From an uncultured Hyphomonadaceae bacterium (lineage in GTDB: Bacteria; Pseudomonadota; Alphaproteobacteria; Caulobacterales; Hyphomonadaceae), in the NCBI GenBank assembly GCA_964412785.1, contig CAYPQD010000025.1, positions 1-32,000 on the forward strand: DNA of 32,000 nt, written 5' to 3'. Below are positions 6,789 to 30,507 of this stretch, one piece after another. The notes beneath the pieces were generated by a model, which had not been told where the DNA came from, made no database searches, and saw nothing but the letters and a program-made list of their open reading frames with translations. The translations under genes were made by a program, and so were the position numbers. Each line of letters opens with the position of its first letter. Position 1 is the first letter of the stretch.

Positions 6789-7193
6789 TCAGTCCGGATC
6801 GTAGCGCAGGTGGCGGTGCCAGTAGAGATGCAGGCCCAGATAGCTGAGCCCGATGCCAAAGCTGCTCGCCCCAAGTGCCGGCATGATGACACCGCGCAGC
6901 GGCGAGAAGATGATCTCAAGGCAGATGGCAAAGCCCAGCGCCACCATTGCGGCCACACCGCGCCGGTGGAGGCCGATGGTCAGTGCCGTCCAGATCGTCA
7001 TCGACGAGAAGGCCGACGCGCGCACAACATAGTCCTGCAAGGGCAGGACCGTGTCGGCCACCTCGGCAAAGGTGACCGTCTTCAGGGCCACGATCACGGC
7101 GATCACGCCGGTGACGCCCGTGGCGATCTGTTCAAGGCGGCGGTCCATCCAGACGCTCGGCCCGCGCTCCTCGTCGGCGGTCATCTCGCTCAT
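6789..7193 (-). CDS. Hypothetical integral membrane protein (134 aa, ~4 TM segments)
   Basis: ORF MSEMTADEERGPSVW... with hydrophobic segments IATGVTGVIAVIVAL, MTIWTALTIGL, VAAMVALGFAICLEIIF and ASSFGIGLSYLGLHLYW. Lies 96 nt downstream of motA on the same strand. Confidence 0.55.
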   Translation of the reverse strand: MSEMTADEERGPSVWMDRRLEQIATGVTGVIAVIVALKTVTFAEVADTVLPLQDYVVRASAFSSMTIWTALTIGLHRRGVAAMVALGFAICLEIIFSPLRGVIMPALGASSFGIGLSYLGLHLYWHRHLRYDPD

Positions 7194-7289: not shown

Positions 7290-8171
7290 TTAACCGGCGC
7301 GCCTTCGCGGGCGCCGGGATGCGGCGAGGGGCACCACCCGCGCCGGGATGGCAGCGGGACGGTAGGCCTGCGGGATGGCGCGCCGGCCGGCCTCGACCGC
7401 AGCATGGGGCGGGGCCCCCTGGCAATGGGCCGACAGGGTCGCGCGGATCACTTCCAGGGGCGCGGTGTCGGCCTCCACCACGTCGCCGAAGCGCGCCGCC
7501 AGCGGCCCGACCACGCCATAGGAGAGGAACACCCCGAGAAAGGTGCCCAGCAGGGCCCCGGCGATCAGGCCGCCAAGAATGTCGGTCGGCTGGTCGATCG
7601 CGGCCATGGTCTTGATGATGCCGAGAACCGCCGCGACAATGCCCAGTGCAGGCAGGGCATCGGCCAGTTGGATCAAGGCGCGCACCGCCTTCATCTGCTC
7701 CTCGCGGGCCTGCGCCGCGCTGCCGGCCAGCGCCTCGTCCAGCCGCGCGCCGGCGGACGGGTCGATCGCCAGCGCCTGCAGCGCCTCTGTGAGATAGGTG
7801 CACACGCTGGCGTCCTTCAGGGTCATCGGTGCGTTGGCAAAGCGCGGCGAGTCGGCGGGGACTTCCATGTCCGCCTCGATTGCAACAAAGCCGCCCCGGC
7901 GGACCTCGCCGAGCAATGCGCGCAAGAGGCCGATCAGGTCTTCATAGGCTTCCCGGCGCCAGCGCGGGCCGTGCAGCGCCCGCCAGAAGCCCAGCAGCGC
8001 CTCAGCCGATACCCGGGCGGAATTGGCAATCAGCAGCGTACCGAGCGCCGCGCCGCCGATCAGCGACAGTTCGAAGGGCAGGGCGGCCAGCACGCTGGCC
8101 CCGCCGGTCGAGGCAAGCGCCCCGGCGACCAGGATGAGGACAAGAAGCAGGCCGGCAAGCTGGAGCATCAC
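7290..8171 (-). CDS. motA: Flagellar stator protein MotA
   Basis: 293 aa. The N-terminus MMLQLAGLLLVLILVAGALASTGG...LSLIGGAALGTLLI is MotA-like. The C-terminal MotA/TolQ/ExbB channel block is LPALGIVAAVLGIIKTMAAIDQPTDILGGLIAGALLGTFLGVFLSYGVVGPLA. No motB lies adjacent. Confidence 0.85.
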   Translation of the reverse strand: MMLQLAGLLLVLILVAGALASTGGASVLAALPFELSLIGGAALGTLLIANSARVSAEALLGFWRALHGPRWRREAYEDLIGLLRALLGEVRRGGFVAIEADMEVPADSPRFANAPMTLKDASVCTYLTEALQALAIDPSAGARLDEALAGSAAQAREEQMKAVRALIQLADALPALGIVAAVLGIIKTMAAIDQPTDILGGLIAGALLGTFLGVFLSYGVVGPLAARFGDVVEADTAPLEVIRATLSAHCQGAPPHAAVEAGRRAIPQAYRPAAIPARVVPLAASRRPRRRAG

Positions 8172-8532: not shown

Positions 8533-9018
8533 ATGATGAAAGTCACCCTCGCCGCCCTTGCCCTCGTCTTTGGCGCCGGCACGGCTTCCGCCCAGCAATA
8601 TGCCGCAGCCAACGGCTACCGCACCTGTCCGGCGGACCAGACCACTCAGGGCATTGAGATCGTCCGCGATGTCTGCGGCGCGCTCAAGCCGCCGAGCCTG
8701 ACCAGCGCCAACTTCTCCTCGCTTGACGAGTTGAGGGCCGCAGAGGCCCAGCGCGTTGCCTTCGAGCAGGACGTGGCCGCGTTCGGCCAGTGCGTCACCG
8801 GCTTCATCCAGTCCTATCGCCGCCCCGGCGCCGATGCCAGTTCAGCGGCGCCGGACCAGGCCGCCTGCGCCCATGCCTGGGCAGAGGACCAGGCGACGCA
8901 GCTGGTGCGCGACTTTGGCCGCGCCTGCGTGGATTTTTCCAACCGGTCCATGGTCGACGGCACGATCGAGCCGTGGAGCGGAGCGTGCTACCCTTCGGCC
9001 GGCTCCGGCCAGGGCTGA
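8533..9018 (+). CDS. Secreted hypothetical protein with signal peptide and six cysteines
   Basis: GAGGAG at 8523-8528 precedes ATG 8533. MMKVTLAALALVFGAGTASA-QQ is a Sec signal with an A-x-A site. The mature part has 6 Cys (RTCP, DVCG, GQCV, AACA, RACV, GACY). Confidence 0.6.
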   Translation: MMKVTLAALALVFGAGTASAQQYAAANGYRTCPADQTTQGIEIVRDVCGALKPPSLTSANFSSLDELRAAEAQRVAFEQDVAAFGQCVTGFIQSYRRPGADASSAAPDQAACAHAWAEDQATQLVRDFGRACVDFSNRSMVDGTIEPWSGACYPSAGSGQG

Positions 9019-12600: not shown

Positions 12601-12864
12601 TCACGCCGCCAGGCGCACGTCGAAAATCTCGCTCAGCGTCACGCCAAGCTCACCGTCGGCCACCACAAGCCGTCCGCGCGCCATAAGCCGGTCCGAGACA
12701 TAGATCTCGATCTCTTCGCCAGCCGCCCGGTCCAGCGCCAGCACACTGCCCGGCGCCAGAGCCAGCAGCTCATCCATCGGCATGCGCACCTCGCCCAGCA
12801 CCACGTCCACCTCAACGGGAACGTCCATCATCCGGCGAGCGAGTGCGGGGTTGGTGTCGGTCAT
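12601..12864 (-). CDS. fliN: Flagellar motor switch protein FliN (SpoA domain only, 87 aa)
   Basis: VPVEVDVVLGEVRMPMDELLALAPGSVLALDRAAGEEIEIYVSDRLMARGRLVVADGELGVTLSEI is a canonical FliN/SpoA domain. GGAGG lies upstream of the ATG. Confidence 0.85.
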   Translation of the reverse strand: MTDTNPALARRMMDVPVEVDVVLGEVRMPMDELLALAPGSVLALDRAAGEEIEIYVSDRLMARGRLVVADGELGVTLSEIFDVRLAA

Positions 12865-12888: not shown

Positions 12889-13281
12889 TCAGTCCGAATC
12901 CGCGAACGTGGCGGGCAGGGGTTTACAGCTTGCAAACAAGTCGAGCTGGCCATCGCTGACCCGCTGTGCCGCGGTGCGGGCAAACGCCGCCAGCCCTTCC
13001 GGAAGCGTGCCCGCCATCCCGGCCGCGTCGAGGCGCTCGGCCAGGTGGCTGAGATCGGCGAGCGCCAGGTCGAGCCGTGCGGCGGCCCGTTCCAGCCGCT
13101 CAAGCCCCGCAGGACCTGCCCGGTCTGCCGCCTCACGGGCGCCCTCCGCGCGGGCCTCGGCAAACAGGGCCGCCAGCTCACGCAGGCTCAGCGTCACCCG
13201 TTCGCCCGTATCCTGCTGCGGCGCGGAGAAATCGGCGGAAAACGAGAACGGTTCGACAGAGGCGATGCGGCGCACGGTCAT
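12889..13281 (-). CDS. FlbE/FliH-like flagellar assembly protein (130 aa)
   Basis: Sits between fliG and fliN, as flbE does in the Caulobacter fliF-fliG-flbE-fliN operon. Ala/Arg/Glu-rich helical protein (LRELAALFAEARAEGAREAADRAG...LERLERAAARLDLALADL). Its start overlaps the fliG stop as ATGA. Assignment rests on position plus composition only. Confidence 0.5.
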   Translation of the reverse strand: MTVRRIASVEPFSFSADFSAPQQDTGERVTLSLRELAALFAEARAEGAREAADRAGPAGLERLERAAARLDLALADLSHLAERLDAAGMAGTLPEGLAAFARTAAQRVSDGQLDLFASCKPLPATFADSD

Positions 13282-14162
13282 TCGATCAGCTCATCGGGCT
13301 TTGCGCGGGCACCGGGGGGGCGGATATCCCCGGCCACGATCAGCCGGCGGACGGTCGCCACCAGTCGCTCCCTGGCGGCCATGACCTGCTCACGGCGGAC
13401 CGGGCCAAGCGCGGCAAGCTCCTCGCCCAACGCTTCGCCGGCGCGCCGGGTCATGTTGGCAAGCACGGCCCGCCGAACCGCTTGCGGCGCCGCCTTCAGG
13501 GCAAGCACCAGGTCGCCGCGCTCGGTCTGCGCGAGCAGGGTCTGCATCCCGGCCGGGTCCAGGTGCGCAAGGTCTTCGAAGCGGACAATCCGTCGGCGGA
13601 GTGCTTCGGCCTCGGCCGGGGCCTGCTGGCCGAGGCGGGCGATCAGCCGCTCTGCCTCGTCTGCCGGAAGGCACTCCAGAACGCCGGCGACCGTGTCGAG
13701 GCCGCTTGCGGGCGAAGCGCTGCCCGTCCCGCCGACATGGCGGATGAGGCCCGCGTTCAGGGCGTCGAGGACGCCCGGCACCGGCGTGACTGGCTGCAGC
13801 AGACGCGCCATCACACGGCCAGCCTCCGGGCGCTTCATCGCGCACACAATCGCCGCACCGAGGGCCGGGTCGAGCTGTGAGAGGATCAGGGCCGCCACCG
13901 CCGGGCGCTCGCCGCTGAGGGCATCGGCCATCCGCGCGACATCGCACCCGGCAAGATCGGCAAACCCGATCATTGCGGGCGCATCGTCCTGCGCTGGCGC
14001 CGCCGATCGTTGCGGGCCGTCCATTGCCGCTGCAATTGCCCGCGACTCTGCGTCCGACAGCCGTGCCCAGACCGGTTCCCCGGCGGGCCCCAACGCCTCC
14101 AGCAGCCGCGCGGAACGCTCCGCACCGCTGAGACCGGAGAGGCGGGGTCTCAGCGCGGTCAT
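13278..14162 (-). CDS. fliG: Flagellar motor switch protein FliG (short, 294 aa)
   Basis: N-domain LSGAERSARLLEALGP. Middle domain SGERPAVAALILSQLDPALGAAIV (the EHPQ-block equivalent). C-domain FEDLAHLDPAGMQTLLAQTERGDLVLALKAAPQAVRRAVLANMTRRAGEALGEELAALGPVRREQVMAARERLVATVRRLIVAGDI. Confidence 0.85.
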   Translation of the reverse strand: MTALRPRLSGLSGAERSARLLEALGPAGEPVWARLSDAESRAIAAAMDGPQRSAAPAQDDAPAMIGFADLAGCDVARMADALSGERPAVAALILSQLDPALGAAIVCAMKRPEAGRVMARLLQPVTPVPGVLDALNAGLIRHVGGTGSASPASGLDTVAGVLECLPADEAERLIARLGQQAPAEAEALRRRIVRFEDLAHLDPAGMQTLLAQTERGDLVLALKAAPQAVRRAVLANMTRRAGEALGEELAALGPVRREQVMAARERLVATVRRLIVAGDIRPPGARAKPDELIE

Positions 14163-14719
14163 GAGCGGGTCTCCGCTGACAGCCAGCCGCGGATCAGGCC
14201 GAGCGCCATGTCTGTCTCATCGGCGCGGCCGCCTTCCGGCTCTGCGGCGGCACAGGCCAGCCTCGGCGATCCGTTGGCGCGCACGCCGGCAATCAGGGCG
14301 ATTGCAAGGGTCGCGACCAGCAGGTAGGGCGCGGCGCGATCCAGACCCGCCAGGCCTGCTGCCGCTCCGGCACCGGCAAAGCTGACGCGCTCCACTGTGA
14401 TGCCTCCAGCCGCCGCCCAGGGTGCAATGCCGGAGCGACCGGCGAGGCCGGCAAGGTTCGCAGCCTCCGCGTTATCGACGGCGGCACGGTCCACGAGCAC
14501 AAGCACCTGAAGCGCGCCATCATTGGCGGACTGGCCGATCGTCACATGCACGCGCCCCGGCCCGGCGACACGCTCCAGAAGGGCGGTCAGACGGGCTTCC
14601 TCGGGGCTTGCTGCGCTCGGGGATGGCGCGGCTGGGCCAGCCAGCGCGGCGCGGGCAGCAAGCAGCCCGGCCACCAGCAGGACGCCAAACGCCAGGATTT
14701 CCACCGGCCTGAAAGCCAT
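14159..14719 (-). CDS. 186-aa two-TM protein in the fliF position; candidate miniature FliF-like M-ring protein
   Basis: Lies in track ORF 14159..14746. Start placed at ATG 14719 with GGAGG 6 nt upstream. The stop overlaps the fliG ATG (ATGA at 14159-14162). TM1 is ILAFGVLLVAGLLAARAAL. A ~100-aa segment follows with a helix-strand-strand-helix-strand pattern. TM2 is PYLLVATLAIALIAGV, and the tail ends DMALGLIRGWLSAETRS. Codon-position G+C counted over 14521-14580 is 16/20, 10/20, 16/20, which is compatible with coding but not decisive. The FliF-like call is inference. Confidence 0.6.
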   Translation of the reverse strand: MAFRPVEILAFGVLLVAGLLAARAALAGPAAPSPSAASPEEARLTALLERVAGPGRVHVTIGQSANDGALQVLVLVDRAAVDNAEAANLAGLAGRSGIAPWAAAGGITVERVSFAGAGAAAGLAGLDRAAPYLLVATLAIALIAGVRANGSPRLACAAAEPEGGRADETDMALGLIRGWLSAETRS

Positions 14720-14779
14720 CGCACGCCTCCGTGACCGGACACACATCCGGCCTCGGATAAAGGCGTAGCCGGTTCACGG

Positions 14780-14795
14780 TAAATCCCGCTTTAAC
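14780..14795 (-). promoter_or_regulatory. CtrA-box-like site (GTTAA-N7-TTTA on the minus strand) upstream of the flagellar operon
   Basis: The plus strand reads TAAA-TCCCGCT-TTAAC at 14780-14795, one mismatch from TTAA-N7-TTAAC. It lies 61 nt upstream of ATG 14719. Ten nt downstream on the minus strand is GCTACGCC (14762-14769), which resembles the alphaproteobacterial -10 GCTANAWC. Confidence 0.35.
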
Positions 14796-14810: not shown

Positions 14811-15080
14811 TCAGCGGTATTGCTGGACGCGGGTCGCGCGCAGGCCCTTGGCTCCGTGGTGGGTGTAAAGGCGCACCCACGTTGCGAATTCCTCGTCCGA
14901 CAGGGCATAGCGCGCGCAGGCATCATCCCTGGACAGGAGGCCGCCCTGTACGGCGGCGACCACCTCGGCCTTGCGGCGTGTCACCCAGCGCGAAATCGTC
15001 GGCGGGGGAAGGTCGTCGAGCGTCAGCGGCGTTCCGTCGGGGCCGCGCACGCTGACGACGTGGGCGTTCTGCTGGTTCAT
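14811..15080 (-). CDS. sciP: SciP-type small transcriptional regulator (DUF1153 family)
   Basis: MNQQNAHVVSVRGPDGTPLTLDDLPPPTISRWVTRRKAEVVAAVQGGLLSRDDACARYALSDEEFATWVRLYTHHGAKGLRATRVQQYR. The LTLxDLPP...RWVxRRKAEVVAAVxGGLLS...GLRxTRxQQYR pattern is the SciP/DUF1153 signature. I prefer ATG 15080 (AAGGTGG 5 nt upstream) over the track's GTG at 15089. Confidence 0.8.
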   Translation of the reverse strand: MNQQNAHVVSVRGPDGTPLTLDDLPPPTISRWVTRRKAEVVAAVQGGLLSRDDACARYALSDEEFATWVRLYTHHGAKGLRATRVQQYR

Positions 15081-15186
15081 CGGGTCCACCTTGCTTCACA
15101 TGTGGAGTCTGGCCGCCGCTTCTGCGGTCGGCGTGAAACAGGGTGTACCCCAGCCGCCTTTAAGGTGGCGCTGAGCCCGGCACGGC

Positions 15187-16571: not shown

Positions 16572-17408
16572 TCAGGCTGCCGAGCGGGCCGCCGCCGGTT
16601 CGGCGATCCAGCCGCCACGGACCTCGCGCGACGGACGCAGGATGCCCTCCGGAGCGCGGGCCGGCTCGCCCTCGCCGAACAGGATCACCCCGCCGGGGGC
16701 CAGCCGGTTGCTGAGGGTGCGCGCCACCTTGCCGGCCGCTTCGTCGGTCATGGTGCGCACCACATTGCGGCACAGGATAATGTCGGCCGCCGGCACGGCG
16801 TCCGCCGGCTCCAGCAGGTTGTGGACGGAAAATTGGACACGGTCACGCAGGCTTGTGCGCGCCTGCCAGTCGCCGCTGTCGATCCTGTCGAAATGGGCCA
16901 GCAGGTGGTGGATCGACAGGCCGCGCTGGACGGCGAAATGGTCGAACACGCCGGCCGCGCCGCGCACCGTCGCCTCGCGGCTGAGGTCGGTGGAGCAGAT
17001 CTCGAAGCCGGCCGGCAGGGCCTCGTCCGCCACCCGCCGGGCCAGCAGGATCGCCAGCGAATAGGCCTCGTGACCGGCCCCGCCGCCGGCGCACCAGATC
17101 CGGACAGGGCGACCCGGTGCACGGATCGCCGCCGCCGGTGCCAGCGTCCCGGCGATACGCTCCAGACCTGTCCGTCCACGGAAAAACGTCGCATCGGACG
17201 CAACCAATGCGGCCGCCACTTCCCGCTCGAACGACGGATTGGGACGCTCGTGCAGGCAGCGGGTCAGGTCCTCAAGGCTGGAAAAGCCCTCGCGCCGCAG
17301 GATTGGGGCAAGGCGCGCCTCGACCAGATAAGGCCTGGCCGTCGTCAGGACCTGCCCCGCATGGTGGCGCAGCAGGTCGGCAAGGGCGGTCAACGAGGCG
17401 TCCGTCAC
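16572..17408 (-). CDS. cheR: CheR-type protein-glutamate O-methyltransferase
   Basis: Lies in track ORF 16572..17522. I prefer GTG 17408 (GGAG 6 nt upstream), which avoids a 47-nt overlap with the upstream gene. CheR N-domain ends in ...SDATFFRGRTGLERI. The SAM-binding block is VRIWCAGGGAGHEAYSLAILL, followed by IILCRNVV. Confidence 0.75.
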   Translation of the reverse strand: MTDASLTALADLLRHHAGQVLTTARPYLVEARLAPILRREGFSSLEDLTRCLHERPNPSFEREVAAALVASDATFFRGRTGLERIAGTLAPAAAIRAPGRPVRIWCAGGGAGHEAYSLAILLARRVADEALPAGFEICSTDLSREATVRGAAGVFDHFAVQRGLSIHHLLAHFDRIDSGDWQARTSLRDRVQFSVHNLLEPADAVPAADIILCRNVVRTMTDEAAGKVARTLSNRLAPGGVILFGEGEPARAPEGILRPSREVRGGWIAEPAAARSAA

Positions 17409-17475
17409 GTGAGGCTCCAACAGGCGGCCGGCAGTTGCAACGTGGGAGCGTGGCGGCCCGTGCGTTAACAAACCC

Positions 17476-17841
17476 TCAAGCGAGGCCGACCTCGGCGAAC
17501 TTGCCGCGCACGATGTCCGCATCGAATGGCTTCATGATGAATTCATCCGCGCCCGAACGGAGTGCCTCGCCAATATGCTCCGGGTCGGACTCCGTTGAGC
17601 AGAAGATGACCTTCGGCTTCGTGCCATCGGGCTCCCGGCGCAGCGAGCGCAGGAAATCAAGGCCGTTCATGACCGGCATGTTCCAGTCCAGCAGCACCGC
17701 ATCCGGCATCGCCTCGCGGCAGAGCTTCAGCGCTTCGGCCCCGTCGCCCGCCTCGCTGACCTCAAAGGCCATGTCTGTGAGAATGCGGCAGGCAACCTTG
17801 CGCACCACACGCGAGTCATCGACGATCAGGCAGCGTTTCAT
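17476..17841 (-). CDS. CheY-like single-domain response regulator (121 aa)
   Basis: Start at ATG 17841 (MKRCLIVDDSRVVRK). All receiver residues are present: DD (aa 8-9), phospho-acceptor D in AVLLDWNMPVMNG, T in FCSTE, and K in FIMKPF. Confidence 0.85.
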   Translation of the reverse strand: MKRCLIVDDSRVVRKVACRILTDMAFEVSEAGDGAEALKLCREAMPDAVLLDWNMPVMNGLDFLRSLRREPDGTKPKVIFCSTESDPEHIGEALRSGADEFIMKPFDADIVRGKFAEVGLA

Positions 17842-17931
17842 GATATCGTCAGTCTCCGGCGACACAATCTCAGGTAGACCCATAGCCAGAAGCGGTTAAG
17901 CCTTTCCTTATCGGCTGGTGGCCTTGCGCGC

Positions 17932-18573
17932 TCAGCCGCCCGTCACCACGCCTGCCGCAATCAGGGTCACCTCATCGCTGCCCGTCCGCGTCTCGAAGCG
18001 CGCTCCCATCTTCTGCCCGATCAGCCAGGTGAACAAGGGCTGGATGGTCCGCGCCTGGAAGCCCTCCGGGTCGCTCTCGCCGCGCAGGCCGCAGGCGATG
18101 GAGTCCGGCAGGCGCGCCCGGTCGCCGCGCGCGATCACGGCCATCGACAACCCGTCTGCCTCCTCACGCAGCCGGATCGTCAGCGTCCCGCCGCGCGGAA
18201 TGCAGCCCATGCCCATCAGCGCCATGTTCATCATCAGCCGCGCATGGGCATAACTCACATGGGCGGTGCCGAGATCCCAGGCAACGCTCGGCTTGTGGGT
18301 TGCCACAAAGCGTTCGGTGATGCGTTTGGCCTCGTGGATGTCTGCTGCCCCATCGGTCATGCCCATCGAGCCGAAGGCATAGCGCAGGAACTCCACGCGT
18401 GCCGACGCGGACGCCGCGCCCTCGCGCAGCAGCGCACCAGCCTCCGCCCGGGTCTCCTCGCCATCCGGTCCATCAAGGAGGTCGATCGCGGAGACGATCG
18501 AGGAGATTGGCGAGACAAGGTCGTGGCACACCCTTGAGGCCACGAAACTGGCGAGAATGTCGGGATCGAGCAT
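17932..18573 (-). CDS. chpT: Histidine phosphotransferase ChpT
   Basis: FVASRVCHDLVSPISSIVSAIDLLDG matches the ChpT phospho-His helix (CHDxxSPxxAIxxxxDLL). At 213 aa it has an HK-like DHp plus degenerate CA architecture. Confidence 0.85.
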   Translation of the reverse strand: MLDPDILASFVASRVCHDLVSPISSIVSAIDLLDGPDGEETRAEAGALLREGAASASARVEFLRYAFGSMGMTDGAADIHEAKRITERFVATHKPSVAWDLGTAHVSYAHARLMMNMALMGMGCIPRGGTLTIRLREEADGLSMAVIARGDRARLPDSIACGLRGESDPEGFQARTIQPLFTWLIGQKMGARFETRTGSDEVTLIAAGVVTGG

Positions 18574-24484: not shown

Positions 24485-24970
24485 ATGACGCAGCGTCCGC
24501 CCCCGCTCGATCCGCAGAATTTCGACGCTGACCGCCAGCACTGGATGGCGGTGCGTGTCTATTACGAGGACACCGACTTCACCGGCATGGTCTATCACGC
24601 CAACTATCTGCGCTTCTTCGAGCGCGGTCGGTCCGACCACCTTCGCGATGCCGGCGTGTCCCACACCAGCCTGCTGGAGCGCCCCGACCCGGCGGCCTTC
24701 ACCCTTGTCCGCGCCGAGCTCGACTACCGCTCCGCCGCGCGGGTCGACGACCTGCTGCACATCGCCACCCGCTATCTCGGCACGCGGCGCGCGCGCATCC
24801 TGTTCTCCCAGACCTGCTGGCGCGGCGATACCGTGATTGCGGAGGCGGCGATCACGGTTGTCCAGATCCACTCCGATGGCCGCCCGCGCCGGCCGCTGCC
24901 GGAACTCTGCTGCCGCCTTGGCCCCTTCACGTTCCGCAATGGCGACGGAGCATTAACCGAACCGGCCTAA
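24485..24970 (+). CDS. ybgC: Tol-Pal-associated acyl-CoA thioesterase YbgC
   Basis: VRVYYEDTDFTGMVYHANYLRFFERGRSDHLR is the 4HBT hot-dog signature. The gene lies directly upstream of tolQ. Confidence 0.85.
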   Translation: MTQRPPPLDPQNFDADRQHWMAVRVYYEDTDFTGMVYHANYLRFFERGRSDHLRDAGVSHTSLLERPDPAAFTLVRAELDYRSAARVDDLLHIATRYLGTRRARILFSQTCWRGDTVIAEAAITVVQIHSDGRPRRPLPELCCRLGPFTFRNGDGALTEPA

Positions 24971-25074
24971 CCGATCGCAGCCGTCACTGTCCCATTGCGC
25001 CCCGACTGCCCCGATTTCGTCAGAATTCATGGGCAGGGATCGCATTCGGGCGGCGGCCATTGCGGGCCTGTCCC

Positions 25075-25097
25075 CCGCGCCCCCGCAAGGGGCGCGG
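25075..25097 (+). other. GC-rich 9-bp stem-loop between ybgC and tolQ
   Basis: CCGCGCCCC (25075-25083) pairs with GGGGCGCGG (25089-25097) around the loop CGCAA. No clear T-run follows. Confidence 0.3.
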
Positions 25098-25153
25098 CCC
25101 CGCCGAGAGTTTGCCACACGCCCGATGACGGGCGCCCCAGAGTGAGGATCCCC

Positions 25154-25870
25154 ATGGACAACCAAGGCCTGCAAGACCCCATGGCCCATTCGGACTTCTC
25201 CTTTATCGGCCTGCTGCTGGACGCCGATATCGTCGTCAAGGCCGTCCTGCTCATCCTCATCATCGCCTCGGTCTGGTCCTGGGCGGTGATTGTCGAGAAG
25301 TGGATGACCCTCGGCTCGGCCCGGTCCAAGGCTCGCAAGTTCGAGGAGGCCTTCTGGACCGGGCGCACCGACCAGTTCGACCTGCGGCCGGGCTCAGGCG
25401 GAGAGAATGCCGGCGAGCGGGTGTTCGCCGCGATCTCGCGCGACTGGAACGAGGCGCGCCGCGGCGCACTGCCGCCAAGCCAGGCCGGCCACCTGGTGGA
25501 GCGCGCCGAACGCGCCCTCAAGGCGGCGGTCGATCGCGAGGTCGGCGCCCAGTCCGGCGGCCTTGGCGTGCTCGCCACCGTCGCGTCCGCCTCGCCCTTC
25601 ATCGGCCTGTTCGGCACCGTCTGGGGCATCATGAACGCGTTCATCAATATCGCCGAGCGCCAGGATACCAGTCTCGCCACCGTCGCCGGCCCGATCGCCG
25701 AGGCGCTGTTCGCCACGGGCCTCGGCCTGGTGGCCGCGATCCCGGCCGTCATCTTCTACAACAAGTTCACCGGCGACCTGAACCGCTTCGCCGACCAGCT
25801 CGACACCTTTTCCCAGGACATTCTCGTCCGCCTCTCCCGGCGCGCGGGCGAAACCGGCGCGGAGGCCTGA
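25154..25870 (+). CDS. tolQ: Tol-Pal system protein TolQ
   Basis: Start at ATG 25154 with GAGGA upstream. Carries the MotA/TolQ/ExbB block GLGVLATVASASPFIGLFGTVWGIMNAF...GPIAEALFATGLGLVAAIPAVIFYN. Confidence 0.9.
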   Translation: MDNQGLQDPMAHSDFSFIGLLLDADIVVKAVLLILIIASVWSWAVIVEKWMTLGSARSKARKFEEAFWTGRTDQFDLRPGSGGENAGERVFAAISRDWNEARRGALPPSQAGHLVERAERALKAAVDREVGAQSGGLGVLATVASASPFIGLFGTVWGIMNAFINIAERQDTSLATVAGPIAEALFATGLGLVAAIPAVIFYNKFTGDLNRFADQLDTFSQDILVRLSRRAGETGAEA

Positions 25871-25874
25871 CACC

Positions 25875-26315
25875 ATGGCGGTCCAGCTCGGAGGCGGCGA
25901 GGGCAAGCGCGGCCGGCGCAGTTTCGACAGCAATATCAATGTGACGCCGCTGGTCGACGTGATGCTGGTGCTGCTCATCGTGTTCATGATCACAGCGCCG
26001 CTGCTGGTGCGCGGCGAGGAGGTCTCCCTGCCGAAGACGTCGTCGGGCAACATCGCTGCGAGCCAGGACCAGCCGCTCTCGGTCACCCTTGACGCGGAGG
26101 GTCGCATCTTCATCCAGCAGACCGAAATCCCGCTGGAGGAACTGGCCACCAAGCTGGTCGCGATCACCGGCGAAGGCTATGAAGACATGGTCTATCTGCG
26201 CGGTGACGAGTCGGTGCCCCATGGTCGCGTGATGCAAGTCGTCGCAGAGGTGCGCGGCGCCGGCTATCGTCGCATTGCCTTCGTCACCGACCCGAGGGGG
26301 CGCGCGACCCGCTGA
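25875..26315 (+). CDS. tolR: Tol-Pal system protein TolR (ExbD family)
   Basis: SNINVTPLVDVMLVLLIVFMITAP is the TM segment with the conserved Asp. An ExbD-type periplasmic domain follows. Confidence 0.9.
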   Translation: MAVQLGGGEGKRGRRSFDSNINVTPLVDVMLVLLIVFMITAPLLVRGEEVSLPKTSSGNIAASQDQPLSVTLDAEGRIFIQQTEIPLEELATKLVAITGEGYEDMVYLRGDESVPHGRVMQVVAEVRGAGYRRIAFVTDPRGRATR

Positions 26316-27250
26316 TGCAGATGTGGCGCGGCATTCCGGTCTCGATCCTCCTGCATGCGATCATCGTCGCGGGCGGGACCATCGCCTGGCCTTATTTCGG
26401 CCCGCGCGAGCGGGAGATGGCGTTCGTCGCCGTGCCGATCGAACTGCTCGAATTGTCCGACGAGACCAATGTTGCCGCCAGCCTTGCCCGCGACGAGCCG
26501 GAGGAGGACGACACGCCGGAGCCGCCGCCGCTGCAGGACCTGCTGGAGCAGACCGACGTCCTGCCGGACGAGGAGGTGGTCGAGGCGGATGAGCCGACCG
26601 CCCGCGAGGAGGCGCCCGACCCGGCGCCCGCGCAGGACGAGGAAGAGGTCATCCTGCCCGAGGACGCGCCGGAAGAGGAGCCCGAACCGGCTGAGGAGGA
26701 GGCCACCGAGGAGGACCCCGCCGAGGAGACGCCGGCCGAGCCTGAGCCCGTCCGCGTCGACCCGGAGCCGGAGCCCGACCCGCTTGACAGCCTGCTCAGC
26801 GAGAGCGCCAATCTGTTCGACAAACAGCGACAGGAGCGCGCGAGTGCGCCGCCCTCGCAGCCGAGGCGCGACCTGCAGGACGAGTCCCGCCAGGTGGTTG
26901 ACCGCCGCAGCGCCGGCGATCGCACGGGCAACACCCAGTCGGTCGTCAACATGCTCTATGCCCAGCTCTACCTGTGCTGGGACGACGTCGACGACCTGCC
27001 CAACCCGGAACGGCTCAATGTGACGCTTCGCATGCAGCTGCGCCCCGACGGTTCGCTGGATGGCCAGGTGCGCCTCGTCAGCCCGTCAAGGCCGCCGATC
27101 GGCGACCGTGCGATGGGGGTCGCGATCGAACGGGCCTTGCGCGCGGTGCGTAAATGCGCCCCCTACCGACTGCCGCCTGAGGCGCTCGACGATTATGAGG
27201 CGTGGCGGACGGTGGTCCTGAATATCGGGCCTGCATTCCGCGGCCAGTAG
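26315..27250 (+). CDS. tolA: TolA-like cell-envelope integrity protein
   Basis: The ATG overlaps the tolR TGA by 1 nt. N-terminal TM segment (VSILLHAIIVAGGTIAW), a ~100-aa acidic Pro/Glu linker, and a C-terminal TolA/TonB-like domain. It occupies the tolA position between tolR and tolB. Confidence 0.75.
   Translation: MQMWRGIPVSILLHAIIVAGGTIAWPYFGPREREMAFVAVPIELLELSDETNVAASLARDEPEEDDTPEPPPLQDLLEQTDVLPDEEVVEADEPTAREEAPDPAPAQDEEEVILPEDAPEEEPEPAEEEATEEDPAEETPAEPEPVRVDPEPEPDPLDSLLSESANLFDKQRQERASAPPSQPRRDLQDESRQVVDRRSAGDRTGNTQSVVNMLYAQLYLCWDDVDDLPNPERLNVTLRMQLRPDGSLDGQVRLVSPSRPPIGDRAMGVAIERALRAVRKCAPYRLPPEALDDYEAWRTVVLNIGPAFRGQ
26489..26785 (+). repeat. Low-complexity Glu/Asp/Pro-rich linker-coding tract inside tolA
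   Basis: Amino acids ~59-157: DEPEEDDTPEPPP...EEPEPAEEEATEEDPAEETPAEPEPVRVDPEPEPDP. At DNA level these are reiterated gag/gac/ccg codons. Confidence 0.8.
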
Positions 27251-27308
27251 CATGTCAGCGGTCGCCGCCTGTCAGGGGCGGAAGGGGCCGAGGAAGGAGA
27301 AACGAGCC

Positions 27309-28670
27309 ATGTGGAAACAGATCGGGGCTGCAATCGCCCTTGCCCTCGCTGCGGCCGGGCTGGCCGGGGCGCCGGCCCGCGCTGAGATTGTCGTCAATAT
27401 CGGCGATGGCACCGCCAAGCCGCTGCCGATCGCGGTGCCAACTTTCGCCGCCGCGACCCCCGAGGCGCGCGACCTCGCCGAACAGATCACCGCCGTCGTT
27501 CGGGCCGACCTGGTTTCGACCGGCCTGTTCGATCTCAAGGACGGGGCCGCCTTCATCCAGAAGGACCTGTCCATCTCCGTCCAGCCGCGCTTTGCCGACT
27601 GGAAGATCATCAAGACCGACGCCCTTGTCGTCGGCGCCCTCGACGAACTTCCCGACGGGCGTGTCGCGGTCTCCTTCCGCCTCTGGGACATCTATGGCGA
27701 GGAGGTGCTGCGCCTCGATGGCCAGGCCGGCAAGCGCTACACCACCACCCCGGAAAACTGGCGGCGCATCGCCCACAAGGTCGCCGATTCCATCTACACC
27801 CGGCTGACCGGCGAGAGCGGCTATTTCGACACCCGCATCGTCTATATCGCCGAGAGCGGCCCGGTGACCCAGCGGGTCAAGAAGCTCGCCATCATGGATG
27901 CCGACGGTGCCAACCAACAGGATCTCACCACCGGCCGCCACCTCACCCTGACGCCGCGCTTTTCCACGTCCGAGCAGGAAATCACCTACATGTCCTTCGA
28001 GGGCGGCCGCCCTCGGGTCTACCTGTTCAACATCGAAACCGGCCGCCAGGAAGCCCTTGGCAACTTCCCCGGCATGACCTTCGCGCCGCGCTTCTCGCCC
28101 GATGGCCGCCAGGTGCTGCTGAGCCAGGCCGAGGATGGCAACACCGACCTCTACATCATGGACCTGCGGACCCGTCAGGAACGCCGCCTCACAGACCACC
28201 CGGCGATCGACACCTCCCCCTCCATGTCGCCCGATGGCAGCCAGATCGTCTTCACCTCAGATCGCGGCGGCTCGCCGCAGCTCTACATCATGAACACCGA
28301 TGGCAGCGCGCTTACCTGCCCGTCGGGCGGGCGCGACACCGCCTGCCGGATCACGTTCGGCCAGGGCCGCTATTCCACCCCCGTCTGGAGCCCGCGCGGC
28401 GACCTTATCGCCTTCACCAAGCAGGCCAGCCGGCGTTTCTACGTCGGCGTCATCCGCACCGACGGCAATGGTGAGCGGCTGCTGACGGAAAGCTATCTCG
28501 ACGAAGGCCCGACCTGGTCGCCCAATGGCCGCGTCATTGCCTTCTTCCGCGAGAGCCGTCCCGGTGCCGGACCGCGGCTCTATTCGATCGACCTGACGGG
28601 CAGGAACCTCCGCCAGGTCCCGACCCCGACCGACGCCTCGGACCCCGCCTGGTCGCCGCTGCTCGACTGA
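27309..28670 (+). CDS. tolB: Tol-Pal system beta-propeller protein TolB
   Basis: Start at ATG 27309 with AAGGAG upstream. Signal peptide ...LAGAPARA. Repeated propeller blades: PRFSPDGRQVLL, PSMSPDGSQIVFTSDRGG, PVWSPRGDLIAF, PTWSPNGRVIAF, PAWSP. Confidence 0.95.
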   Translation: MWKQIGAAIALALAAAGLAGAPARAEIVVNIGDGTAKPLPIAVPTFAAATPEARDLAEQITAVVRADLVSTGLFDLKDGAAFIQKDLSISVQPRFADWKIIKTDALVVGALDELPDGRVAVSFRLWDIYGEEVLRLDGQAGKRYTTTPENWRRIAHKVADSIYTRLTGESGYFDTRIVYIAESGPVTQRVKKLAIMDADGANQQDLTTGRHLTLTPRFSTSEQEITYMSFEGGRPRVYLFNIETGRQEALGNFPGMTFAPRFSPDGRQVLLSQAEDGNTDLYIMDLRTRQERRLTDHPAIDTSPSMSPDGSQIVFTSDRGGSPQLYIMNTDGSALTCPSGGRDTACRITFGQGRYSTPVWSPRGDLIAFTKQASRRFYVGVIRTDGNGERLLTESYLDEGPTWSPNGRVIAFFRESRPGAGPRLYSIDLTGRNLRQVPTPTDASDPAWSPLLD

Positions 28671-28684
28671 GCCGCGGCGCCCTT

Positions 28685-28706
28685 GCGCGCCCGGGCGTGT
28701 TTTTTT
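28685..28706 (+). terminator. Candidate intrinsic terminator after tolB
   Basis: GCGCGC-CCGG-GCGTGT forms a 6-bp stem including two G-U pairs. It is followed immediately by seven T's (28700-28706) and starts 15 nt after the tolB stop. Confidence 0.5.
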
Positions 28707-28840
28707 GCGGCAACATGCGGGAAAATCCCGGAACCGGCGTGAGAATCCTGCAAGACTCAGCCACCGCAATGTCATGAAGTTGACAACTCATGTCGCTAAG
28801 GCGTGATAGAGTCTGCAAGAAGCCTCCAGGAGCCTCGCCA

Positions 28841-29395
28841 ATGAACAAGATCATCACAACCGGTGCCGCAGCCGCCCTCATGCTCGGCCTGGGTGCCTGT
28901 GCCTCCCGGCCCGTTCAGGTGGAACCGGCTGAAGCCCCGGCACCGGCGGCCCCCGCGCCAACCCCGGCCCCCGTGCAGGCGACCACCGCCGAGCCGGTGC
29001 GCGAAACCTATCAGGGCCCTGCGCCCGGCACGATCCAGGACTTCCGCGTCAATGTCGGCGAACGGGTCTATTTCGACCTTGACAGCTCCCGCCTCGATGA
29101 GGACGACCGGGAAATCCTCAAGCGCCAGGCCGCCTGGCTGCAGTCCTACCCGAATGTGCGCATCCTGATCGCCGGAAATTGCGATGAACGCGGTACCCGC
29201 GAGTACAACCTCGCCCTCGGCGAGCGCCGCGCCAACACGGTCAAGGACTACATGGTCAGCCTCGGCGTCGACCCCTCCCGTCTGGAGACCGTCTCCTACG
29301 GCAAGGAACGCCCGATCGCGCCGGGCAGCGATGACGCCGCCTGGGCCCTCAACCGCAATGGCCACACCCAGATCATCTCCGGCGCCGTCGGCTGA
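28841..29395 (+). CDS. pal: Peptidoglycan-associated lipoprotein Pal
   Basis: Start at ATG 28841. Lipobox LGLGAC. OmpA-like domain: ILIAGNCDERGTREYNLALGERRANTVKDYMVSLGV...VSYGKERP. Confidence 0.9.
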   Translation: MNKIITTGAAAALMLGLGACASRPVQVEPAEAPAPAAPAPTPAPVQATTAEPVRETYQGPAPGTIQDFRVNVGERVYFDLDSSRLDEDDREILKRQAAWLQSYPNVRILIAGNCDERGTREYNLALGERRANTVKDYMVSLGVDPSRLETVSYGKERPIAPGSDDAAWALNRNGHTQIISGAVG

Positions 29396-29436
29396 TCGCC
29401 GGACGCTCGCCTCGGCGATCCCTGATCTTTCAGTTC

Positions 29437-29478
29437 ACGGCCGGGCTGCCATATTTTGGCCCCGGCCGTTTGCTTGTT
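29437..29478 (+). terminator. Intrinsic terminator after pal
   Basis: ACGGCCGGG (29437-29445) pairs perfectly with CCCGGCCGT (29461-29469). An inner GCC/GGC extension is possible. The T-rich tail TTGCTTGTT follows. Confidence 0.6.
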
Positions 29479-29487
29479 GATCGGGTC

Positions 29488-30507
29488 ATGTTTTCAAACT
29501 TTTCCTGTGCCCGCCCCGCCCGGTCCCTGACCTTGGCATCGCTCCTCCTCCTCGCCGCCGCCTGGCTGCCGGCCAGTGCCCAGCGAGGCGCGCCGATCAC
29601 CCAGGGCGCCACCAGTTCCGACATCGCCGCCACCACAAGGGCGCTGCTGGAACAGAATGCCGACCTGCAGCTTGAGGTGCAGGTCCTGCGCGAGGAGAAC
29701 GCCCGCCTGCTCGGCGAGGTGGAGACCCTGCAATTCCTGATCGGTCAGACGCGCGACGAGGTGAACCGGATGCAGGGCGATGATGCCGAGATCGGCCGCC
29801 AGCTTTCGGAGATCCAGCAGAGGCTGAAAGCGCAGGATGCAAAAATTGCCTCGCTGGAGCGCCAGACCCGCACGCCTGTAGCCGCAAGTGGCGGCAGCGT
29901 GCGGTATTCCGATGGCTCCATCGCGCCGCGCTCGGGCAGTGAAGGGCTCGGCGACACGGGCAATGCCGTCTCCGGCGGGTCGGCGCCCGGCAATGAGCCC
30001 GCCGGCGTCCCGGGCGAAACCCGCATCACCCGCACACCTCGCCCCAATGCCCCGGACACCAGCGGCAATCCGCCGCAGACCGGCAGCCTCGGCACCATCC
30101 CTGCCTCGGCCTTGCCGGGCGAGGCGGGTCCCCTGTTCGAGGATGCCAAGACACGGCTGCTGCAGTTCGATTATGCCGGGGCGGAGCGGAGTTTCCGCGC
30201 CTTCCTTGAGACGTTCGGCGATGACCCGCAGGCTGCCGAGGCCCGGTACTGGCTCGGCGAGGTGCTCTACCAGCAGGGCGCCTATGCCGATTCCGGCGCG
30301 GCATATACCGAGATGATCCGTACCTATCCAGACGACCCGCGCGCGCCCGAAGCCCTGGTCAAACTGTCCCGATCGCTGCGGCTCGTCGGCGAGACGGACA
30401 AGGCCTGCGCTGTCCTCGATACCCTGCCCAAGCGCTACCCCAACGCCTCTGGCGTCACCCGCAATCTCGCGGCGGTGGAACGCACCCGCTCGGGCTGCGA
30501 TGGCTGA
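29488..30507 (+). CDS. cpoB: Tol-Pal system protein CpoB/YbgF
   Basis: Start at ATG 29488. Signal peptide ...WLPASAQ. N-terminal coiled coil (LQLEVQVLREENARLLGEVETLQFLI). Gly/Ser/Pro linker. C-terminal TPR region (AEARYWLGEVLYQQGAYADSGAAYTEMIRTYPDDPRAPEALVKL). Confidence 0.85.
   Translation: MFSNFSCARPARSLTLASLLLLAAAWLPASAQRGAPITQGATSSDIAATTRALLEQNADLQLEVQVLREENARLLGEVETLQFLIGQTRDEVNRMQGDDAEIGRQLSEIQQRLKAQDAKIASLERQTRTPVAASGGSVRYSDGSIAPRSGSEGLGDTGNAVSGGSAPGNEPAGVPGETRITRTPRPNAPDTSGNPPQTGSLGTIPASALPGEAGPLFEDAKTRLLQFDYAGAERSFRAFLETFGDDPQAAEARYWLGEVLYQQGAYADSGAAYTEMIRTYPDDPRAPEALVKLSRSLRLVGETDKACAVLDTLPKRYPNASGVTRNLAAVERTRSGCDG

Follow-up and report, generated by a model that had tools for sequence, protein, structure and literature searches.

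A short, apparently FliF-derived membrane protein and its probable reduced rotor gene set in Hyphomonadaceae

Among the structural proteins of the flagellum FliF comes first, and the ring formed by its third ring-building motif (RBM3) sets a 1:1 template for FliG. In the 32,000-nucleotide stretch of DNA from an uncultured Hyphomonadaceae bacterium that we analysed (contig CAYPQD010000025.1, positions 1 to 32,000; hereafter, the window), the place between sciP and fliG that fliF holds in Caulobacter is taken by an intact open reading frame (ORF) of only 186 aa on the minus strand (14159..14719), whose product, here called X or, together with its relatives, mini-FliF, derives from FliF and is predicted to be an inner-membrane protein with two transmembrane segments (TM1 and TM2). 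With FliF (TIGR00206; Salmonella PDB 6SCN; Caulobacter CC_0905) the mini-FliFs share, besides this gene position, the N- and C-terminal transmembrane segments, TM2 in particular, an RBM3 core with the motifs LLExVAGxGxVRV..., VLVLxD and GDxLxIxxxxFA, and a C-terminal DPxxAAxxxRxW helix, which in FliF binds the N-terminal domain of FliG (FliG_N). In contrast to FliF, they are 186-236 aa long instead of ∼550-580, lack RBM1, RBM2 and the β-collar, and stay below all curated thresholds.

The closest precedent for such a reduced FliF is found in the Chlamydiaceae, where a short FliF of ∼330 aa is fused to FliG and retains RBM2 and one further RBM (Bergeron, bioRxiv 10.1101/023564). Both are natural reductions with two transmembrane segments, a shortened periplasmic region and a link to FliG, outside a classical, complete flagellar context; but while the chlamydial protein is covalently fused to a FliG-M-like domain, mini-FliF is smaller, keeps the RBM3 core only, and is accompanied by a separate FliG, presumably bound by its tail. 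The injectisome protein SctJ (PrgK/EscJ) is likewise small, with a ring-building-motif fold and a C-terminal transmembrane segment, but starts with a lipobox signal peptide and contains two RBMs that correspond by homology to RBM1 and RBM2 of FliF, whereas X has an N-terminal transmembrane segment, a single RBM3-type domain, a tail of the FliG-binding type and a flagellar gene context, and its homology is to RBM3 and the C-terminal half of FliF rather than to the half that resembles SctJ. The only SctJ match, which came from the FliF search, was a true sctJ on an Ensifer plasmid. SpoIIIAH and SpoIIIAG also combine an N-terminal transmembrane segment with a single RBM, which in SpoIIIAH lacks the β-insertion, as in X, and RBM3 of FliF has been described as a SpoIIIAG-like domain (bioRxiv 10.1101/023564); unlike X, however, they have no second transmembrane segment and no FliG-binding tail, lie in another genomic context and show no detectable sequence similarity. 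Finally, Rhodobacter sphaeroides (PMC6180460) offers a precedent for a genome with two rotor gene sets, fla1 and fla2, one of them arranged as fliL<>fliF-fliH-fliN-fliP-fliG and controlled by CtrA, but these encode two complete flagella, whereas the second set of Hyphomonadaceae comprises four truncated genes without export-apparatus and rod-contacting parts.

Relationship of mini-FliF to FliF

When a profile of the mini-FliF family was searched against every PDB sequence with hmmsearch, three matches were found at E≤10, all of them FliF and all from different species (E 0.043, 0.044 and 0.11). The matching blocks are collinear: positions 50-78 of the family correspond to residues 243-271 of Salmonella FliF, at the start of RBM3, and positions 98-127 to residues 409-437, at its end, followed by TM2 and the C-terminus, where the DPxRAAxxVRxW motif of the family aligns with DPRVVALVIRQWMSND of Salmonella FliF. 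In line with this, hhalign comparison of 36 mini-FliFs with 25 full-length alphaproteobacterial FliFs, both taken from the loci fetched as described below, gave a probability of 97.6% (E 2.6e-12) in local mode, matching mini-FliF 92-167 to FliF 368-470, and of 98.4% in global mode. The first-pass annotation of the locus had taken X for the two ends of RBM3 with the collar removed, and this is borne out by deletion of the collar columns from the FliF alignment, upon which the match grew from 76 to 104 columns across the in-silico splice (98.8%, E 6.5e-17); a continuous match between mini-FliF and RBM3 was obtained only after this removal.

The tail, likened in the same annotation to the helix by which FliF docks into FliG, also recovers FliF and little else. 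A 23-column hidden Markov model (HMM) of the family C-terminus, run against 11,286 six-frame ORFs, found the mini-FliFs and then ∼38 full-length FliF C-termini (down to E 2.4e-7), the first unrelated ORF following at E 0.67; X itself, at E 0.035, fell within the FliF block and came ahead of every unrelated ORF. In two relatives of X, we further found sub-threshold matches to YscJ_FliF_C (PF08345) of 18-21 bits, against a cutoff of 23.8, covering profile positions 100-147 of 147, while a Hyphomonas member of the family had no NCBIfam match.

The AlphaFold2 model of X, built from a 32-sequence alignment (mean predicted local distance difference test score, pLDDT, of 76.7; 84-90 in the periplasmic blocks), contains helices at residues 5-26, 39-52, 83-95, 117-148 and 167-185 and strands at 57-63, 70-77 and 107-112, and thus the same elements that had been read from the sequence by eye: a first transmembrane segment, an α-β-β-α-β motif, a second transmembrane segment and a tail helix. 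TM1 (14642..14707, minus strand, as are all the elements that follow) corresponds to the predicted helix 5-26, with the hydrophobic sequence ILAFGVLLVAGLLAARAAL, in which L19 and R23 are conserved across the family. Residues 39-112 (14384..14605) form the predicted single ring-building-motif domain in the periplasm, which by fold and profile matches would equal the RBM3 core of FliF without the β-collar: strands β1 and β2 are joined by a 6-residue turn, where FliF has a β-collar of ∼110 residues. TM2 lies in helix 117-148 (14276..14371), with a hydrophobic core at ∼129-146, and falls within the hhalign match to TM2 of FliF. The cytoplasmic C-terminal helix, residues 167-185 (14165..14221, DMALGLIRGWLSAE), is, by the PDB alignment and the C-terminal HMM, the putative homologue of the FliG-binding C-terminus of FliF, although in the window the DPxRAA turn present in the rest of the family is missing. 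As helices 5-26 and 117-148 are both hydrophobic and bracket the periplasmic region, X is predicted to span the inner membrane twice; its N-terminus, MAFRPVEILAFGVLL..., contains no lipobox.

RBM1 and RBM2 (PF01514) are absent from X, as had been proposed together with the loss of the collar: FliF HMM positions 1-220 gave no alignment to X beyond TM1, and in the model the stretch between TM1 and the RBM3-like helix is only ∼12-20 residues long. In Foldseek, a Salmonella MS-ring chain, EscJ and domain 2 of PrgK were among the best PDB matches of the model, but no match reached E≤1e-3, so that the fold comparison is compatible with an origin from FliF, but not decisive. In summary, the sequence comparisons show that X derives from FliF, with the two ends of RBM3 directly connected and the collar gone, both transmembrane segments and a tail of the FliG-binding type retained, and RBM1 and RBM2 lost.

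X is a real gene and not a chance ORF. It is flanked by sciP upstream and by a fliG of 294 codons downstream, its stop codon overlaps the fliG start as ATGA, and its frame and length are kept in a 68%-identical homologue on an independent contig with the same synteny (L001). An alternative in-frame ATG at 14746 would extend it to 195 aa, but the 186-aa start is the right one, because a GGAGG ribosome-binding site (14726..14730, minus strand) is read 6 nt before the ATG at 14719 and because L001, the closest homologue, also begins with MAF and has no upstream ATG. These features are as first annotated, save that the intergenic distance between the sciP stop and the X start is 91 nt, not 92. There is also, as had been claimed, neither room for a full-length fliF nor a remnant of one: an HMM of 25 alphaproteobacterial FliFs found no full-length or frameshifted fliF at E<1e-3 in the six-frame ORFs of at least 60 aa in the window.

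The four-gene operon and its occurrence in Hyphomonadaceae

The three genes that follow X on the minus strand encode, as far as their sequences tell, trimmed flagellar rotor or switch proteins as well. The first is a FliG of 294 aa (FliG', 13278..14162) with intact M and C domains (FliG_M 3.9e-10, FliG_C 5.6e-28) and a shortened N domain, of which FliG_N matches 37 residues only. Its profile matches the M and C domains of Thermotoga maritima FliG with E 6.3e-48, and it keeps the equivalents of Escherichia coli K264, R281, D288 and D289, the charges of the torque helix. Compared to canonical FliG, ∼40 residues of the N domain are gone, and ∼20-24 more in the lineage of the window; TIGR00207 gives FliG' 105 bits, where the cutoff is 227, which makes it a divergent FliG paralogue rather than a PGAP-equivalog FliG. 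The second, at the position of FliH/FlbE (12889..13281), is a FliH-like protein of 130 aa without a Pfam match, whose similarity to FliH is confined to the N-terminal ∼95 residues of the latter: hhalign of its family with the ∼220-aa proteins encoded after canonical fliG gave 84% (E 7.5e-6) over columns 15-95 of 248, and while one of these ∼220-aa proteins matches Pfam FliH (2.7e-5), the 130-aa family is without the region that matches the Pfam FliH domain. The third, FliN' (12601..12864), has 87 aa and consists of the SpoA domain only (FliMN_C 4.8e-23; TIGR02480 1.2e-23). In the window lineage, the tail of X is also short by ∼35-40 residues, which belong to the cytoplasmic linker and to the beginning of the FliG-binding region, and these paired losses in the X tail and in the N domain of FliG' may reflect co-adaptation, as seen in this single lineage.

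An exhaustive phmmer search of 1.84 billion protein representatives with X returned a small family of proteins of 180-227 aa (E 5e-8 to 7e-4), whereas a word-indexed protein search found only X itself and one 66%-identical homologue. Over phmmer and profile searches, family members score between E 4.9e-8 and 7.8e-30 and fall into ∼30 protein clusters. One phmmer match of 566 aa (P0073, E 6.5e-5), initially a candidate full-length FliF, was rejected as a compositional false positive made of ∼45-residue repeats rich in valine, proline and histidine. The hallmarks of the family are a length of 160-240 aa, TM1, the motifs LLEPxAGxGxxRV, VLxLLD and GDxLxIxxxxFA, TM2, a (DPxRAA)xxxRxW tail, and a location between sciP and a short fliG; X displays them as a shortened, divergent member with 20-32% identity to the others. 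Members are named 'M-ring protein FliF/YscJ' in IMG, 'Flagellar M-ring C-terminal dom...' in UniRef and 'hypothetical protein' at NCBI, so that part of the relationship to FliF has already been picked up by automated annotation. In the literature on the family, on HNE_1391-1394 of Hyphomonas neptunium and on paralogous, short or truncated FliF, we found no description of it.

Scanning one genome per GTDB species with an alignment of FliG' returned 80 loci, none of them from the organism of the window (best match, 39% identity); 38 mini-FliF loci of Hyphomonadaceae were examined. In Hyphomonas, Henriciella and other Hyphomonadaceae, FliG' has 304-318 aa and is preceded, in nearly every locus with upstream flank, by a mini-FliF of 214-236 aa. 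In the other Alphaproteobacteria of the scan, FliG has 335-366 aa and in nearly all cases follows a FliF of 545-584 aa, with a FliH of ∼220 aa and a FliN of ∼115 aa behind it, which bears out the Caulobacter-type order, sciP followed by fliF-fliG-(flbE/fliH)-fliN, on which X had first been recognised as occupying the place of FliF. All 38 mini-FliF loci show the order (mnmA)-sciP-mini-FliF-FliG'-FliH-like-FliN', the FliH-like protein having 116-141 aa, and sciP adjoins mini-FliF wherever the upstream flank is available. In most Hyphomonadaceae, flhF, a ParA/FlhG-like ATPase and ctrA come directly after FliN', with 1-3 kb inserted in some Henriciella-like loci; the window lineage has a HAD hydrolase, rpmJ and a lytic transglycosylase there instead. 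No full-length FliF was found within 10 kb on either side of the 38 loci, nor did tblastn with a Hyphomonas mini-FliF find any match on plasmids.

Individual loci depart from this pattern. In a metagenome-assembled genome (MAG) of an uncultured Hyphomonas (L030:2067-2889), the gap between sciP and FliG' holds only ORFs of 97 and 83 aa without tblastn similarity to mini-FliF, which may have been lost or have diverged highly. In Hyphomonas oceanitis SCH89 (L044:9280-9956), the frame of mini-FliF changes between ∼9675 and 9732, leaving the C-terminal motif on a separate ORF; either the strain has a frameshifted copy or pseudogene, or the sequence contains an error. The uncultured alphaproteobacterial MAG E30__bin278 (L045:7063-7935, plus strand) encodes a FliF of ∼280 aa before a 366-aa FliG; this FliF, an independent and intermediate case of reduction, has neither RBM1 nor RBM2, while TM2, the C-terminal helix and a collar of reduced length are retained (FliF-HMM 221-285, 321-447 and 535-565; TIGR00206 1.7e-8).

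X is under purifying selection. Between the window and its nearest relative, L001, the ratio of nonsynonymous to synonymous substitutions (dN/dS, NG86) is 0.34 for X (dN 0.227, dS 0.670), 0.20 for FliG', 0.21 for the 130-aa ORF, 0.08 for FliN' and 0.04 for SciP; the ORF between sciP and fliG is thus conserved in a relative and does not evolve neutrally.

Upstream of X, at ∼60 nt from its start, lies a CtrA-box-like motif, TTAAAGCGGGATTTA (TTAA-N7-TTTA; 14780..14794, minus strand). A motif of the form TTAA-N7-TT(T/A)A, with at most one mismatch to the CtrA consensus TTAA-N7-TTAA, recurs in the corresponding position of 25 out of 25 spacers between sciP and mini-FliF, where a rough estimate from base composition puts its chance expectation in such GC-rich spacers well below 0.01. 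A simple scan for sigma-70 promoters and terminators found nothing. The conserved motif suggests that the operon may have its own CtrA-dependent promoter, and X heads a translationally coupled operon whose promoter is probably of the CtrA type.

Whether such an operon stands alone in a genome can be judged in Hyphomonas neptunium, whose motility island, according to the supplements of Leicht et al. (2020; PMC7200025), comprises HNE_0241 (fliL), HNE_0242 (fliF, M-ring), HNE_0243 (hypothetical), HNE_0244 (fliN), HNE_0245 (fliP) and HNE_0246 (putative fliG). HNE_0242, which is under CtrA control (PMC7200025), appears to be full length, because it spans ∼2.2 kb together with HNE_0243. This bears on a split FliF, which was also considered, in which the island protein would be without its FliG-binding tail and mini-FliF would provide it in trans. 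A Sulfitobacter plasmid cluster has the same order as this island, fliM-fliL<>fliF-fliH-fliN-fliP-fliG, with a FliF of 564 aa and a FliG of 343 aa with three FliG Pfam domains, and the order also matches fliL2<>fliF2 of the fla2 set of R. sphaeroides (PMC6180460). At a separate locus, the same supplements list HNE_1390 (SciP), HNE_1391 (hypothetical), HNE_1392 (putative FliG) and HNE_1393 (hypothetical), of which HNE_1391-1393 are all expressed and rise together, 1.5-2.1-fold, in a divJ mutant (PMC7200025). As the island carries a full-length fliF and a second fliG and fliN, the sciP-linked operon would be a second, reduced set, and mini-FliF, coexisting with a true FliF, a paralogue rather than a functional orthologue. 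By analogy, the organism of the window would also have a full-length fliF, and X is probably not its main MS-ring protein.

Neighbouring genes in the window

The locus from mnmA to motA recurs with the same gene order in a Logan assembly. The upstream neighbour of X, sciP, encodes the CtrA inhibitor (14811..15089, minus strand; NCBIfam CtrAInhibSciP NF051866, 2.4e-38; Pfam DUF1153, 3.3e-37). Upstream of mnmA-sciP, and also on the minus strand, lie genes for a ChpT-type histidine phosphotransferase (17932-18573), a single-domain response regulator (17476-17883) and a CheR-like methyltransferase (16572-17522), the latter two ORFs overlapping by 47 nt; as this ChpT-type cluster is directly upstream, genes of the CtrA pathway are concentrated around the operon.

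At 6 kb from the X operon, motA encodes a flagellar stator protein (7290..8171, minus strand; MotA_N 3.5e-18 and MotA_ExbB; TIGR03818 MotA1 2.9e-78, below the curated cutoff). It is an orphan, with no motB nearby in the window, and suggests that the organism has retained motor genes. Small ORFs without a family match flank it (6789-7193, minus strand; 8533-9018, plus strand). A second stator candidate at 24995-25870, found by a MotA_ExbB match, was rejected, as it is the TolQ of a complete Tol-Pal cluster (24485-30507, plus strand) comprising a thioesterase, TolQ, TolR, a TolA-like protein, TolB, Pal (OmpA family) and a CpoB-like protein with tetratricopeptide repeats. Between 18903 and 22824, on the minus strand, the window further carries a cluster of the intermembrane phospholipid transport family, with a 1092-aa YdbH-like protein, a YnbE-like lipoprotein and a DUF1318 (YdbL-like) protein.

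A candidate accessory rotor assembly

We consider it probable that mini-FliF is the FliF-derived product of the first gene in a conserved four-gene set of reduced rotor proteins, which would build an accessory or second rotor-type assembly beside the canonical FliF, FliG, FliH and FliN, rather than the MS ring around export gate and rod, because relatives carry a complete canonical set. X would reside in the inner membrane and self-associate through its periplasmic RBM3 core, its tail helix would, as predicted from homology to the FliF tail, tether FliG', and FliG' would in turn organise FliN', the mini-FliH and, via its C-domain, possibly MotA; by homology with H. neptunium, this four-gene module would work beside a canonical set encoded elsewhere without replacing it. 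RBM1 and RBM2 of FliF surround the export gate, the collar encloses the rod, and the C-terminal domain of FliH contacts the ATPase. Given these known partners, the pattern of losses is plausibly one in which contacts to export gate, rod and ATPase were given up, while those to rotor, switch and stator were kept. X may thus be a membrane anchor and possibly a ring former for FliG'. The isolated RBM3 of Salmonella FliF forms rings, albeit in a construct that includes the collar (bioRxiv 10.1101/2021.09.23.461508). While the gene order, the domain losses and the selection on X can be read from the genomes, we infer its oligomerisation, its binding of FliG' and its control by CtrA. It is quite unlikely, if conceivable, that the four mini proteins go further and build a separate inner-membrane ring without export gate or rod, which engages MotA/MotB via the torque helix of FliG' and acts as a non-propulsive rotary or force-sensing device, for example in polar organisation or in cell-cycle signalling beside sciP, flhF and ctrA, and which has been kept throughout Hyphomonadaceae alongside an ordinary flagellum.

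Several observations weigh against an accessory assembly headed by a FliF derivative. Matches of X to Pfam YscJ_FliF and YscJ_FliF_C had been expected, but PF01514, PF08345 and TIGR00206 gave none, even at E=1, in Pfam and NCBIfam scans; unrelated α-β-β-α-β folds (KH, MamM CTD, Ohr) score in Foldseek like the ring-building motifs do; and the C-terminal match of X itself is weak (E 0.035), clear as the motif is for the family. Within the operon, X has the highest dN/dS and is thus the least constrained gene, and it has the lowest GC content at third codon positions (GC3), 0.74 against 0.79-0.88 in its neighbours, a weaker coding signal. In the FliG' of the window lineage, the FliM-binding motif, which is EYPQ in canonical FliG of Alphaproteobacteria and EHPQ, ERPQ or ESPQ in relatives, has become ERPA; with this degenerate motif and a very short N-domain, the interaction between X and FliG' could have decayed in this lineage. 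Lastly, coexistence with a full-length fliF is documented for H. neptunium only, in a group whose FliG' is 33-40% identical to that of the window, and HNE_1391 would be a mini-FliF by the invariant synteny in other Hyphomonas, not by its own sequence.

These observations lend themselves to other readings, to different degrees. That the similarity to FliF is spurious, and X an unrelated small protein with two transmembrane segments that happens to precede fliG, would agree with the lack of curated domain matches, the alanine-rich, high-GC composition of X and the poor discrimination of Foldseek, but it is hardly credible given that three independent collinear blocks match FliF and FliF only, and that FliF C-termini ranked before all ∼11,000 background ORFs. 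Accepting the homology, X could be the only M-ring protein of the organism, a minimal, SctJ-sized scaffold for a working flagellum or a reduced derivative, a role in which it would replace FliF and which the first-pass annotation had offered as one of two readings. Its position and translational coupling to fliG, the retention of both transmembrane segments, of one ring-building motif and of a FliG-binding-type helix, the rings formed by isolated Salmonella RBM3 (bioRxiv 10.1101/2021.09.23.461508) and the nearby motA are all as this role would have it. Nevertheless, we regard it as very improbable, for in H. neptunium the orthologous locus (HNE_1390-1393) stands beside the fliF HNE_0242, which is full-length and under CtrA control, and beside another fliG and fliN, and FliG' is, by its TIGR00207 score (105 bits against 227), a diverged copy. 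X moreover lacks RBM1 and RBM2, with which FliF contacts the export gate, and the collar, its contact to the rod, and the FliH-like partner of X lacks the Pfam FliH region; with these parts gone, the module looks uncoupled from type III export.

The other reading put forward at first was an in-frame deletion relic, which for the family as a whole is at odds with a short form conserved in 38 Hyphomonadaceae loci and ∼30 protein clusters, under purifying selection and accompanied by three partners that are miniaturised too. Restricted to the window lineage, and whatever the family does in Hyphomonas, a module in decay, with X and FliG' drifting to loss of function, would account for an X that is 30-50 aa shorter than all other members and has no DPxRAA in its tail, for the further ∼20-24 residues missing from the N-domain of FliG' and its ERPA in place of EHPQ, for the dN/dS (0.34) and GC3 of X, the highest and lowest of the operon, and for the absence of flhF-parA-ctrA after fliN. 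It is rather improbable, however, since the window and L001, at a dS of ∼0.65, both keep four intact ORFs, with X of 186 and 187 aa and the other three identical in length, as well as the stop/start overlap and the ribosome-binding site, since all four genes show dN/dS values far below 1, and since the deletions in the X tail and in the FliG' N-domain are paired as co-adaptation predicts, an argument drawn from one lineage. X might instead be no ring at all but a membrane-tethered decoy or chaperone for FliG, which controls when or where the rotor is assembled within the CtrA/SciP cell-cycle programme, for example one that retains FliG' at the membrane or pole or that competes with FliF. This would suit the conserved neighbourhood of sciP and, for most relatives, of flhF, the ParA/FlhG-like ATPase and ctrA, the conserved CtrA-box-like motif, the response of HNE_1391-1393 to the deletion of divJ, and the fact that a stable ring is not guaranteed without the collar. 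We hold it to be unlikely, though, as a decoy would have no need of a conserved periplasmic RBM, the region in which X is most strongly conserved and most confidently predicted, nor of dedicated FliG, FliH-like and FliN paralogues with the torque residues kept.

The family bears on several questions. The FliF labels in IMG and UniRef could make automated pipelines miscount fliF genes. As a natural deletion experiment in which TM1, the RBM3 core, TM2 and the FliG-binding tail have been held family-wide, mini-FliF speaks to the minimum that may be required to tether FliG and, perhaps, to serve as its ring template. For Hyphomonadaceae, it would point to a conserved and as yet unexplained second rotor set with all partners trimmed, whose role can be tested in the genetically tractable H. 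neptunium.

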